Positions 614-56,008 of a DNA stretch of 64,000 nt are shown here, piece by piece. Position 1 is the stretch's first letter, and every line of letters starts with the position of its first letter. Position numbers and translations under genes: made by a program. The notes under the pieces were generated by a model that did not search any database, was not told where the DNA came from, and saw only the letters and a list, made by a program, of their open reading frames with translations. Source of the stretch: a virus; the IMG/VR virus record IMGVR_UViG_3300049846_002100, positions 1 through 64,000 of that record; one strand, given 5' to 3'.

Positions 614-1684
614 TCAGAAGTCGTTGCTGTGATCCTCATCCTCAACAACCTGCGCCTCCTTGTTGCCCAGGCGGTCGATATCTCTGAGACCGCCCCAGTA
701 GGAGCGAAAGTCATCGTAATAATAGGTACTTAGAGCCCACTTCATCGTGTCCAGGACACGGCCGATGGTGTCGTTGGGCAGGTAGCGGTCGGTGAAGATG
801 TACCGGACCCTGAAAAGGGTGTGGGCCGGGCGAATGATGTCCAGCAAGATGCGCGTGGCAGAATCGAGCGAGAACACGTCCGCTGGAAACGAGACGGGCG
901 GCGTCTCCTCCTTCCAACCGATGGAACCATTGTTCGCGTCGTTCGCGACAGCACTCGCGTTCTGGATCTTCACTGAGGAGGGGGTCAAAAACTGCGTGAC
1001 CTCGAACGTCCCATTGTTCGCCGACGAGGCCGCATTGCTGATCACGAGCCGGCGTCCGACTGAGTTGGTGCTCATGCTCGTCAAGCCGGTGACGGTGATG
1101 AGGTCGCCGTCCGTCGTCGTCAGACTGGCACCAGACCCTACTTGAATGGTCCCGCCTCCCACCGTCACATCGATCTGAAATCCGAACTGGTCCGAGATGT
1201 CGTATCCGGAGGCCCCCTCCCGAATACGAAGGAAATTCTCCGTGATCTTGACCGTCCCCGAGTAGAAGAGCTGAACAGCGTCACGCATCGACTTCGGAAC
1301 GGACCCCTGGAAGTAGATGCGGACGAGATCCAGCAAGAACTTCCGGAACTCCGAGTCATCGAAGGCCAGCGGCGGCAGGCGGCCATTCAAGAGGAGAAGA
1401 TAGCCCAACATCGAGTAGAGGAAGTCCGGCCGCGTCGTCGGGAAGGAGCGATCTGTGTCCACGTCCTCCAAGGCCAGCTCGATACGCGCCAGCTCGACAG
1501 CCACCGCCTTCATCTCGTTCGTGTAGTTCGGGCCTTGAACGAGTGAGACGTAGTTCGAGGGCAGAAGCCCTAGAAGCGTGTTGAAGATGGACTGCGCCCG
1601 CCCAATGAGTCGAAGGTTGTATTCCTTGCCGGTCTGCGTGACCGTGAAATTAAGTCGGTTTGGATCCGTGACGAACCTGGGCAT
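614..1684 (-). CDS. Baseplate wedge protein (P2 gpI / Mu gp48-like)
   Basis: Follows the gpJ-like gene. FRKFLLDLVRIYFQGS and IIRPAHT motifs are typical of gpI-like wedge subunits. Confidence 0.6.
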   Translation of the reverse strand: MPRFVTDPNRLNFTVTQTGKEYNLRLIGRAQSIFNTLLGLLPSNYVSLVQGPNYTNEMKAVAVELARIELALEDVDTDRSFPTTRPDFLYSMLGYLLLLNGRLPPLAFDDSEFRKFLLDLVRIYFQGSVPKSMRDAVQLFYSGTVKITENFLRIREGASGYDISDQFGFQIDVTVGGGTIQVGSGASLTTTDGDLITVTGLTSMSTNSVGRRLVISNAASSANNGTFEVTQFLTPSSVKIQNASAVANDANNGSIGWKEETPPVSFPADVFSLDSATRILLDIIRPAHTLFRVRYIFTDRYLPNDTIGRVLDTMKWALSTYYYDDFRSYWGGLRDIDRLGNKEAQVVEDEDHSNDF

Positions 1685-1685
1685 T

Positions 1686-2528
1686 TTAAAACACCCCCGC
1701 TTGCTTCGCTTCGAGAATCCTTGCGTGCACTAAATGACGGCAGACACATAGGCGTTTCGCAATCGCTCGTTGACTTAAGCCTGTACGCATCAGGCTCAAC
1801 ACGGTTTCCATGGGTACATCATGTCGATAGGCCCTTGCTGTTCGGCCTGTCCTACCGCGAAGTTTCTCGGCGGCCCTAGGGCACTTCTTCTTTGGCCTTG
1901 TGATGGCTAGTCCGTCTCTTCGTGCTGCTACGAGTCGCTTTGAAATCGTTCCGACAGCAGTACCCAATTCTTGAGCAATCTGCTTTCTTGTAGCCCCTTC
2001 CGAGACTCGCTGAAGAATGACAGCCGTTGAGATGTTACATCGGAAGGGGCGGCTTCTCTCCCCGAATTTCCCGCGTAATGAGGCGCTTATTTTTTCCCTA
2101 GCTTCATGTGATTGCTGGGTGCCTTTTCGGGAACCTGGACGCCCCTTCTTCGCGAGCGACATTTTTTCTCTGGTCTCACCGCTGCATCGGCGACCACTCT
2201 GACCAAGACCTCCGTTTGTGTGGTTCGTCAGATTCGCCCCCGCACTGCGCGCAGTAGCGATCTCCTTTACCTCAAGACGATCCAATTCTTCTCTGGAGAA
2301 TGCAGTGCCAAGCTCCCTAATGATCGGACGGAGCCCTGACCGCCGCAATGATGCAAGCCAATGTGCTGAGTGGTGTGATCTAGCAAGGTTCTTCAAGGTA
2401 AGGTGCGCCTTGAGACGAACTTCGAGGGTTCTGACTGTTTGACCAACATACCGAAGAGCACCCTCACGTGGATCATACAATCCGTAGACACGACCAAAAA
2501 GCGTTGGGTCCTTGGTGAAGCGAGCCAT
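1686..2528 (-). mobile_element. GIY-YIG homing endonuclease with NUMOD3-like repeats and C-terminal HTH, apparently intact
   Basis: VYGLYD...YVGQT...R...H, E, NLTN; ETREKMS/EAREKIS repeats; AT-richer than its flanks; start overlaps the gpJ stop (TAATG). Confidence 0.85.
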
Positions 2529-54420: not shown

Positions 54421-54537
54421 GGGGGTCTCTATACACCGAGGCGAAGCATAGGCTGCAAACCCTTGTAATTTTGATGGGCCCGACCCTACCTGCCGATTAA
54501 ACCGCCGATGACCCCGCTTCCGGTGGAGGCATTAAAA

Positions 54538-55335
54538 ATGCGGGTTCTACGGCAGGGACTAGAGGGGGACGATGTTTCGGCCTGGCAGAACTTCTTGACC
54601 GGACAGGGGTTCTACAAGAACGAGGTCGACGGGTCGTTTGGTGACAAGACCAAGCTAGCGACGCAGGACTTCCAGAGGACGTTCGGCCTGGATCCCGATG
54701 GGGCCGTGGGGGACGCCACGATTGCGAAGGCCGTCGAGTGCGGCTTCGAAGCCTACAGGGGCGAGGATGCGAGCGCAACAGGCCCGAATTGGCCCGCGCC
54801 GCCCACGAATTTGAAGCCCTTGACCTCAACGGCAGAGAGGCAACGGGAGTTCGGCGCGTTCAAGTATGCGGCGGCTCCTACGCCGGGTAACCCAGAAGCC
54901 ATCCGGGTTACCGACAACTGGTATCAGGCGAACATGACCCGAGTGGTCATCCCTCAGCTTGCGGGTGGACGTATCGTCGGTGCCCCCAAGGACGGGAGCA
55001 TCGTCTTCCACCGCCGGGGAGCGGGCCAGCTCCTTGCGATGTTTCGCGCATGGGACGACGCGGGACTCATGCCCCTCGTGCTCTCGTGGGCTGGTAGTTA
55101 CGCCCCTCGATTCATCCGGGGTAGCCGGTCCGTTCTCTCTAACCACGCCTTCGGAACCGCCTTCGACATCAACCCCGAATGGAACGGCCTCGGCGTCGTC
55201 CCTGCCCTCGTAGGGAATGTCGGTTCGGTACGGAAGCTCGCCGAGCTGGCACCTCAGTTTGGGTTCTATTGGGGCGGTCATTTCAGTGGTCGCCCTGACG
55301 GAATGCACTTTGAGCTGTGTGAGGTACGTACGTGA
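54538..55335 (+). CDS. Endolysin: PG-binding domain plus M15-family peptidase
   Basis: DGSFGDKT...DFQ...DGAVG; R, SNHAFGTAFD, WGG, DGMHFE; GGAGG RBS before 54538. Confidence 0.88.
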   Translation: MRVLRQGLEGDDVSAWQNFLTGQGFYKNEVDGSFGDKTKLATQDFQRTFGLDPDGAVGDATIAKAVECGFEAYRGEDASATGPNWPAPPTNLKPLTSTAERQREFGAFKYAAAPTPGNPEAIRVTDNWYQANMTRVVIPQLAGGRIVGAPKDGSIVFHRRGAGQLLAMFRAWDDAGLMPLVLSWAGSYAPRFIRGSRSVLSNHAFGTAFDINPEWNGLGVVPALVGNVGSVRKLAELAPQFGFYWGGHFSGRPDGMHFELCEVRT

Positions 55336-56008
55336 AATCATTTGTGTACTGCACCACCAACGTAAAGAGCGGGAAGCGCTACGTCGGCAAGGCTAATAAC
55401 CCGACTCAACGTTGGGTAGATCATATCCGTCGTGCCAGACAAAGTGCGGAGGGGTACCTCACCAACACCATACGCAAGTGGGGAGTTGAGTCATTTAAGT
55501 TAGAGGTCGTTCAAGAACACCCTTCGGAGAAAGCGGCTTTCGAAGCGGAGGCTGAACTCACTCGTGTTTGGGAAACAAACAACTCCCAGTAGGGGTACAA
55601 CCTTGCGGGAGGTGGTCGAGGCGGCGGCCCCTCAGAGATCGTCCTTGCCAAGCTTAGACGACCAAAGTCGGAAGAGACTAAGCTACGTATGCGACGCCCA
55701 AAGTCTCCTGAACATAGGCAAAAGCTGAGTGCCGTGAAGGTCAGCGATAAGAACCTCAATTCGGCAAACCGCTCTCGGAAGAGCATCGCACCAAGATCAG
55801 TCGTGCTAATACGGGGTCTGGTAACGGCTTCGCAGGGAGGAAACATGGGGACGCAACACGCGAACGCATGCGCGCGGCCCAACAATCCCCCGAAGTGAAA
55901 CAACGGGCTTCTGAGGGGGTGCGTGCGGCGTGGGTACGTCGAAAAGCAGTCCCAAAAGTCAACGACAGCATGCATTTCGAGTTGGCAGAACCCAATTCAG
56001 CGGTGTAA
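55332..56008 (+). pseudogene. GIY-YIG homing endonuclease pseudogene (TAG at 55590-55592, frameshift near 55760)
   Basis: FVYCTTN...YVGK...R..DH...E...NSQ*GYNL, then NUMOD3-like repeats (SEETK, SPEHR, SEEHR). Confidence 0.85.

Follow-up and report, generated by a model that had tools for sequence, protein, structure and literature searches.

Gene ends duplicated around homing endonuclease genes at four loci of a giant phage fragment

Nuclease genes bracketed by paired gene ends

We analyzed a 64-kb stretch of viral DNA (the window; positions 1 to 64,000 of IMG/VR record IMGVR_UViG_3300049846_002100), which is the first part of an 88,941-bp virus record with a CheckV completeness of 18% and has a G+C content of about 59%. 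Because the relatives found through its proteins are phage contigs of 280 to 530 kb, we regard the window as a fragment of a giant phage. At four loci (L1 to L4), an endonuclease gene or its remnant stands directly outside one end of a phage gene (the host gene), and a second, diverged copy of that end (the stub) stands on the far side of the nuclease. An earlier note, made from the letters alone, had quoted eight terminal peptides beside these nuclease loci. All eight occur once each, at the positions given there, and each of the pairs brackets a nuclease gene or nuclease remnant; the observation of paired gene ends around nuclease genes is real and was confirmed. The features of the four loci are as follows.

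L1, 2531..5989, minus strand: upstream gene, Baseplate_J-like (Pfam PF04865, E = 5e-14)
L1, 2496..2528, minus strand: stub MARFTKDP(TLF), with MARFTKDP at 2505-2528; displaced start of gene 614-1684, opening the nuclease open reading frame (ORF)
L1, 1686..2528, minus strand: GIY-YIG homing endonuclease gene, intact ORF of 280 amino acids (NUMOD3, HTH_23; phrog_314)
L1, 614..1684, minus strand: host gene, 356 amino acids, a baseplate-module neighbor belonging to no family; 12 orthologous loci
L2, 39413..39448, plus strand: older fragment VGITGTSGCGNT, a decayed P-loop start of the deoxynucleoside monophosphate (dNMP) kinase, 4 nucleotides (nt) past the upstream stop
L2, 39472..39495, plus strand: stub (P)KIIGISA, with KIIGIS at 39475-39492; no start codon, in frame with the nuclease tail
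L2, 39511..39675, plus strand: homing endonuclease relic, C-terminal DNA-binding tail only (phrog_6156)
L2, 39672..40439, plus strand: host gene, dNMP kinase (PF21448; phrog_139, E = 2.5e-38), with its start placed by orthologues
L3, 42314..42350, plus strand: probable stub, made up of MELRSD from an ATG, a 2-nt gap, and IEWTTYL (42330-42350), in register with MTTATDIKWSSYL
L3, 42384..43094, plus strand: gene of putative endonuclease VII/HNH type, its frame interrupted by TGA 42819-42821
L3, 43091..44218, plus strand: host gene, 375 amino acids, C-terminal PG_binding_1 (PF01471)
L4, 54508..55335, plus strand: host gene, M15 endolysin (PF13539, PF01471); 120 homologues
L4, 55332..55963, plus strand: GIY-YIG pseudogene (PF01541 at 55338-55565, 41.5 bits; NUMOD3 in two frames)
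L4, 55964..56008, plus strand: stub DSMHFELAEPNSAV and stop, with DSMHFELAE at 55964-55990; displaced native endolysin end that closes the last frame of the pseudogene

At L1, the TAA of the Baseplate_J-like gene and the ATG of the nuclease share one base (TAATG). At the other junction, the nuclease stop TAA is followed by one base and then by the ATG of gene 614-1684, whose working start, MPRFVTDPNRLNF (1646-1684), contains MPRFVTDP at 1661-1684 on the minus strand. The earlier note had proposed that the elements take over the start and coupling signals of their host genes, which is seen at L1 only, through this TAATG. The nuclease is identical to the homologous gene of the related locus L008 at 108 of 236 residues, and the L008 gene passes PF01541 (23.6 versus a cutoff of 22.6). 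The L1 nuclease itself has no Pfam PF01541 match, and the GIY-YIG hallmarks (Tyr, Tyr-x-Gly, Arg, Glu, and Asn) are invariant in an alignment of seven sequences; a PDB sequence search with it gave no match at E ≤ 1. When the seven GIY-YIG N termini were aligned, it alone had seven extra residues (FTKDPTL) after MAR.

At L2, only 264 nt separate a nucleoside-deoxyribosyltransferase/NUDIX gene from the dNMP kinase, and the 76-codon frame found there has no start codon inside. The relic is 45% identical over 55 amino acids to the end of the endonuclease at the related locus L018 (E = 6e-13), and its assignment to the GIY-YIG type is by descent, the tail being homologous to the L018 protein, which aligns with the GIY-YIG set. 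Its TGA overlaps the kinase GTG (39672), from which the working start reads V-KLLGISGLAAAGKDT, with KLLGIS at 39675-39692. As for this start codon, the ORF list gives GTG 39660, and orthologues point to GTG 39672. With a 10-column matrix, the older fragment VGITGTSGCGNT ranked second of 139,038 positions with 14.2 bits, the working copy scoring 20.0.

At L3, both halves of the broken nuclease are matched by phrog_1035 ("endonuclease VII"), and phrog_3322 matches with E = 4e-31; no Pfam match was found at E ≤ 0.01. The nuclease stop overlaps the host ATG (ATGA), and the working start, MTTATDIKWSSYL, includes IKWSSYL at 43109-43129. A word-index search with a nuclease half returned its own protein only, and an exhaustive protein search gave homologues that place the native nuclease start at the Met of ORF residue 20 (ATG 42384): residue 1 of the homologue falls on ORF residues 19 to 21 in 68 of the 79 that were matched N-terminally, and none of 149 aligns before residue 14. 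IEWTTYL therefore sits in a leader, outside the nuclease. MELRSD (ATG 42314) lies in the adjacent frame, and together with the 2-nt gap the segment reads M....SDIEW..YL, matching the register of the family start, MTTxxD[IV]xW[GS]xY in 119 homologues. On the opposite strand, ORF 40441-42360 probably starts at ATG 42258 (AGGAA upstream), and its first 34 codons look noncoding; since a start of this divergent gene at 42258 is likelier than one at 42360, there is no overlap problem with the L3 stub.

At L4, the working end of the endolysin, DGMHFELCEVRT and stop (55297-55335), contains DGMHFELCE at 55297-55323, and the endolysin TGA overlaps the GTG of the pseudogene. The latter is interrupted by a TAG (55590-55592) and changes frame somewhere from 55733 to 55763, between two NUMOD3 matches.

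The four cases had been described in the earlier note as homing endonucleases of the HNH and GIY-YIG families. Three of the elements are of the GIY-YIG type and one is probably of the endonuclease VII/HNH type; only the gene at 1686-2528 is intact. The nuclease genes are poorer in G+C than the host genes (51 to 56% versus 58 to 62%; at third codon positions, 49 to 66% versus 68 to 79%), which is consistent with import and does not separate stub from working copy. As a marker of the imported end, G+C content was rejected, the stubs being, like the nuclease genes, poorer in G+C than the host genes. Three other nuclease-like ORFs in the window stand without stubs of neighboring gene ends: 7880-8281 (minus strand; Endonuclease_7, 67.5 bits), 33759-34616 (minus strand; HNH, 50.3 bits), and 62231-62788 (minus strand), a weak-HNH zinc-finger ORF with a G+C content of only 50% between ThyX-like and nucleotidase-like genes.

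The same sites in related phages

We compared the window with 12 orthologous loci for L1, 18 loci for L2 (8 of which were examined), 32 for L3, and 80 endolysin loci for L4; numbers from L002 to L137 denote loci in related phages, and P0121 denotes a homologous endolysin protein. No near-identical phage was found with positions 1 to 6000 of the window. Single-protein scans of viral contigs with L3 and L4 gave no relatives, whereas alignment-based scans did find relatives. The layout in which an endonuclease gene separates the intact end of a gene from a displaced piece of that end was found in related phages as well as in the window, and relatives differ at the same site in whether they carry the element. 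Homologous nuclease genes with stubs occur in other phages at the sites of L1, L2, and L4, and this recurrence backs the reading of the earlier note that the peptides are gene termini.

In 7 of the 12 L1 loci, which are uninterrupted, the gene lies at most 8 nt from the Baseplate_J stop or overlaps it, and starts with M[AP]R[FL]..DP.R.N. Starts with MA and with MP are both natural at this site, and the exact MPRFVTDP occurs in L007. An intact homologous GIY-YIG gene occupies the site in L008 and L009 (one sequence on two contigs), where MARF is directly followed by the GIY-YIG strand. In L002, whose host gene is 92% identical to that of the window, MARFTKDP is kept and fused in frame to a 96-codon relic without a nuclease domain. 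Of the 12 sites, 7 are empty, 2 hold the intact element of L008 and L009, 1 holds a relic, and 2 hold insertions of another kind.

The L002 relic (L002:2755-2997) lacks the nuclease domain and some of the tail, yet a single open frame still runs from the stub ATG to a TAA abutting the host ATG; translation through the relic may couple to the host gene. Identity between the window and L002 is about 85% on either side and drops only slightly over the first 80 nt of the 614-1684 gene; a sharp exchange boundary at L1 was looked for in this identity profile and not seen. At the junction between the Baseplate_J and 614-1684 genes, there are also a 110-codon cysteine-rich ORF (L004:2665-2994) and a 130-nt spacer (L010:2871-3000), and the junction looks like an insertion hot spot.

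At the L2 site, uninterrupted kinases open with M(K)[IL][IL]GISGLAGSGKDT (8 of 18 loci examined), and the element is present in one of the eight loci examined among the 18 found. This locus, L018, has a GIY-YIG-like endonuclease ahead of the kinase and the stub IVGILGLAGFGS before the endonuclease, in another frame; the stub scored 24.0 bits and ranked second of 9,237, with the next at 12.6. At the junction of the endonuclease end and the kinase start, L018:2465-2510 consists of three tandem 14-nt units, each with a GGAG that resembles a ribosome site and an ATG.

The native character of the L4 stub is seen from P0121, the nearest endolysin relative, full-length and 89% identical to the protein of the window. 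In the stretch leading to FEL, the two are the same for about the last 30 residues and differ once in the last 60. P0121 ends with LAKPDLAV, the window stub with LAEPNSAV, and the working end of the window with LCEVRT; the eight-residue tail LA.P..AV is matched by P0121 alone among the 120 homologues (score 23, next 14). A metagenome scan for the contig of P0121 gave one unrelated weak match only. Homologous endonuclease genes lie directly 3' of the endolysin in 4 of 80 loci. A second D.MH.E motif occurs in 1 of the 80, L081 (the same place as L033), which carries the endonuclease: here an intact GIY-YIG gene ends with RPDGMHFELVQP and stop, beside the endolysin's RPDGMHFEVAIP and stop. L137 has a short stub, IINENL and stop beside IINSNL and stop. 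At the target site, compared with 60 unique uninterrupted endolysin alleles, both working copies have the commonest codons, GGA/TTT, and both stubs have GAC/TTC/TTG; the contrast, from two element-bearing loci, is only a hint.

In the window, the host genes are complete and collinear with their orthologues from the working start or to the working end, stops separate the host and endonuclease ORFs, and no stop-containing gap lies inside the working genes. Judged by this collinearity, no intron or intein splicing module surrounds the endonuclease genes, no Rfam search having been made. The proposal of the earlier note, namely, an insertion within the terminus of a gene that displaces the native end as a stub and supplies a second, diverged end without splicing, is supported by these data, as the start or end of uninterrupted orthologues coincides exactly with that of the working copies.

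Terminus replacement weighed against other explanations

We consider it fairly probable, at roughly 0.7, that L1 to L4 are four terminus-replacing homing elements. According to this explanation, a free-standing endonuclease gene directly outside the end of a conserved phage gene would target conserved, motif-encoding sequence a few codons into the gene, namely, the M[AP]RF..DP start, the P-loop of the kinase, the W..Y..EGP start, and the zinc-ligand motif DGMHFE at the four loci. A sensitive genome would be cut and the break repaired from an element-bearing genome, so that the repaired gene would gain the terminal codons of the donor, with the endonuclease gene before or after them. The recipient's own terminal fragment would be displaced to the far side as the stub, and the gene would stay whole without an intron or intein. 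The position of the two copies suggests that cleavage falls inside the duplicated segment, and we infer that the working end would be resistant and that transfer would run from the donor. In the N-terminal cases, the endonuclease could be translated from the start codon of the stub, coupled to the gene upstream as in the TAATG of L1, and the 3' end of the element would provide the host gene with a ribosome site and an overlapping stop and start (GTGA, ATGA). Once fixed, the element would lose its endonuclease to decay, three of the four in the window being dead. The first such arrangement could have been created by T4-type one-sided homing with illegitimate junctions.

Chance was assessed with position matrices built only from orthologues of other phages (nine for L1), with which the six frames of the 88,941-bp record were scanned. 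Behind the working copy, the stub ranked second at L1 (21.3 bits, 145,788 positions, next 13.2), at L2 (16.4 bits, 149,363 positions, next 14.7), and at L4 (27.8 bits, 142,342 positions, next 10.5). The L3 stub was weaker than the other three, with 11.1 bits and rank 10 of 149,363, its working copy scoring 22.7 bits. When each gene end was aligned to the distal end of its nuclease gene, with every window of the same size in the record as background, p was 0.032, 0.025, 0.009, and 0.0025 for L1 to L4, respectively, whereas the wrong ends of the four loci and the three other nuclease-like ORFs gave p values of 0.075 to 0.97.

It was also expected in the earlier note that the stub would be closer than the working end to the allele of endonuclease-free relatives. 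This holds at L4, where P0121 ends like the stub; at L1 and L2 the comparison is indecisive, both copies lying within natural variation, and at L3 the result is the opposite, the working start resembling the family more closely than the stub does. The same note had taken a richness in A/T-ending codons as a sign that the working ends are foreign to the gene bodies. Numerically this is so (23 of 49 codons versus 21 to 30% in the bodies), although the feature is not distinctive, since ordinary gene ends (first or last 13 codons of 46 genes) have 34% with a standard deviation of 16 to 17%, and the stubs have 14 of 32.

Several observations weigh against terminus replacement. Two of the four endonuclease-bearing relatives at the L4 site, L105 and the relic L086, have no visible stub, which lends no support to the idea that the terminus travels faithfully with the element. 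The working ends of element-bearing endolysins are mutually unlike (LCEVRT, VAIP, and IAEIINSNL). The L3 element was found in none of the 32 loci of relatives, and the full register of its stub requires the 2-nt gap. A naive control, in which the 1.5-kb neighborhood beside every ORF was searched, ranked L4 first of 73 and L1 fifth of 72 and did not return the L2 pair as the best match, placing the pairwise similarity at L1 to L3 within chance. With a short hidden Markov model, the two fragments at L2 had E values of 17 and 29. Codon style was rejected as a sign of imported ends, the stubs being as rich in A/T-ending codons as the working ends. The case rests on exact placement and comparative data, and L1 to L3 taken singly would not be compelling by similarity alone.

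That the matches are mere chance, or are the endonucleases' own termini and not homologous to gene ends, we hold to be very improbable. The matches are short (six to nine residues), and the fifth place of L1 in the naive control, the rank of L3 in the record, and HMMER E values above 10 at L2 would agree with such an origin. Against this stand the second ranks of three stubs with independent orthologue matrices, the recurrence of the same layout in L008, L018, L081, and L137, the position of the stub residues outside the conserved endonuclease cores, and the p values of the wrong ends and other ORFs; for L1, L2, and L4, chance is already contradicted. We give even less credence to the possibility that slippage or unequal exchange duplicated the gene ends locally, in tandem, before endonuclease genes came to lie between the copies, a possibility for which the duplicated gene fragments without a proven nuclease link in fungal mitochondria could serve as a precedent (as far as the available part of PMC4162613 shows). 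At all four loci, an endonuclease, and nothing else, would have had to land precisely between the copies. Their divergence at the DNA level is 24 to 43% (from 5 of 21 bases at L4 to 9 of 21 at L3), and the working tail at L4 is unrelated to the native tail. Besides, the single endolysin locus of 80 with a second motif has an endonuclease, and duplicated ends without an endonuclease gene or relic between them were not seen in the 80, 32, and 12 loci.

A closer relation of the preferred explanation is one-sided (illegitimate) homing, in which the stub would be an accidental, functionless fragment of the recipient and the working end the ordinary allele of the donor; the endonuclease gene would have been intergenic in the donor, and its far flank, having no homology in the recipient, would have been joined there nonhomologously. 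We judge it rather unlikely; all that sets it apart from terminus replacement is that the stub and working end would not be under selection as parts of the element. Such scars would account for the varied stub lengths (3 to 4, 8 to 11, and 13 codons at starts; 7, 12, and 14 at ends), for the endonucleases without stubs in L105 and L086, for the stub of L018 being out of frame with its endonuclease, and for the different upstream neighbors in the window and L018; for phage T4, one-sided events are described that involve long resection and junctions at microhomologies (in the portion of PMC2988022 at hand). On the other hand, the L1 flanks are syntenic on both sides in all relatives, so that two-sided repair is possible, and stubs are in frame with the endonuclease ORF in 6 to 7 of 8 cases examined, where one in three is expected. 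In L002, moreover, the frame that begins at the stub ATG has stayed open as far as the host start in spite of two deletions.

If terminus replacement is correct, its significance might extend beyond this phage. Tentatively, and with less confidence than we attach to the four loci themselves, terminus swapping may be a third general way, beside introns and inteins, for several endonuclease families to inhabit conserved phage genes. The stub would then be a working part, as the start codon and coupling or the stop, as the far homology arm, and possibly, being half a homing site at the start of the endonuclease itself, as an operator for autorepression of the kind described for I-TevI. Terminus replacement shows how free-standing endonucleases can colonize the most conserved codons of phages, such as those of the P-loop and the zinc-ligand motif, without splitting the gene, and it accounts for small orphan ORFs and pieces of gene ends for which annotation pipelines offer no explanation. 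Cleavage probably falls in the region marked by the stubs, which gives testable target sites for the intact 1686-2528 enzyme and its relatives in L008, L018, and L081. Repeated replacement of ends would make termini evolve as chimeras, which bears on phage phylogeny and recombination maps.

Known systems with a similar arrangement

Terminus replacement has counterparts outside phages. One is the mitochondrial atp6 of Allomyces, where a free-standing endonuclease ORF goes with a duplicated gene end. In fungal mitochondria, atp6 and cob are also found intact on one side of a free-standing GIY-YIG or LAGLIDADG ORF and as a partial C-terminal copy on the other (PMC6279837, in its available passages), in accord with the earlier note, which had cited such organelles as the established example. 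As described there, these cases differ from the phage loci in that they belong to organelle genomes, are C-terminal only, and have duplicated segments of hundreds of bases.

Among phages, the T4-like seg and mob genes are promoterless cassettes that overlap the upstream stop (UAAUGA, mobE) and have signals for the downstream gene embedded in them (PMC2988022, portion at hand). Like the elements studied here, they cut inside a conserved neighboring gene, and repair is illegitimate if one flank has no homology. Unlike those in the window, the T4 elements are intergenic or split genes (mobE in Aeh1 nrdA), and that portion of the review mentions no duplicated gene terminus, the words "duplication" and "duplicated" being absent from it. 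The MobA/gene 60 cassette of T4 is also a phage endonuclease cassette with which an insertion inside a gene is tolerated without splicing; it depends on ribosomal bypass of a 50-nt gap, unlike the working genes of the window. Full-text searches found no phage report of duplicated gene ends next to endonuclease genes, though supplementary tables might list such contexts, and the available part of Barth et al. 2023 (PMC10448857) does not describe the design.

A close parallel is found in yeasts. The WHO elements of Torulaspora and Lachancea home into FBA1 (Coughlan et al. 2020, PMC7282813). In the mechanism demonstrated for them, according to the available text of that paper, the sensitive allele is cut inside the gene, repair swaps in a resistant end together with the endonuclease gene, and the former end is left downstream as a fragment and doubles as a homology arm; each further round adds another fragment, the newest lying nearest the gene. 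The design is not rare, terminus replacement having been published for these elements. As far as that text goes, the loci in the window are like WHO in having an endonuclease gene just beyond the gene end, an old end displaced as a fragment, no splicing, and decay to pseudogenes, and the two L2 fragments, the older one farther from the kinase, resemble the WHO fragment clusters. The WHO proteins, in contrast, are intein-like LAGLIDADG/zinc-finger enzymes of the eukaryotic nucleus that act in meiosis, with about 400 bp replaced, whereas the window has phage proteins of the GIY-YIG and endonuclease VII/HNH types; its elements duplicate about 4 to 15 codons, use gene starts as well as gene ends, and have stubs that can fuse in frame to the endonuclease. 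The design at these four loci is a phage variant of an arrangement known from yeasts and fungal mitochondria.

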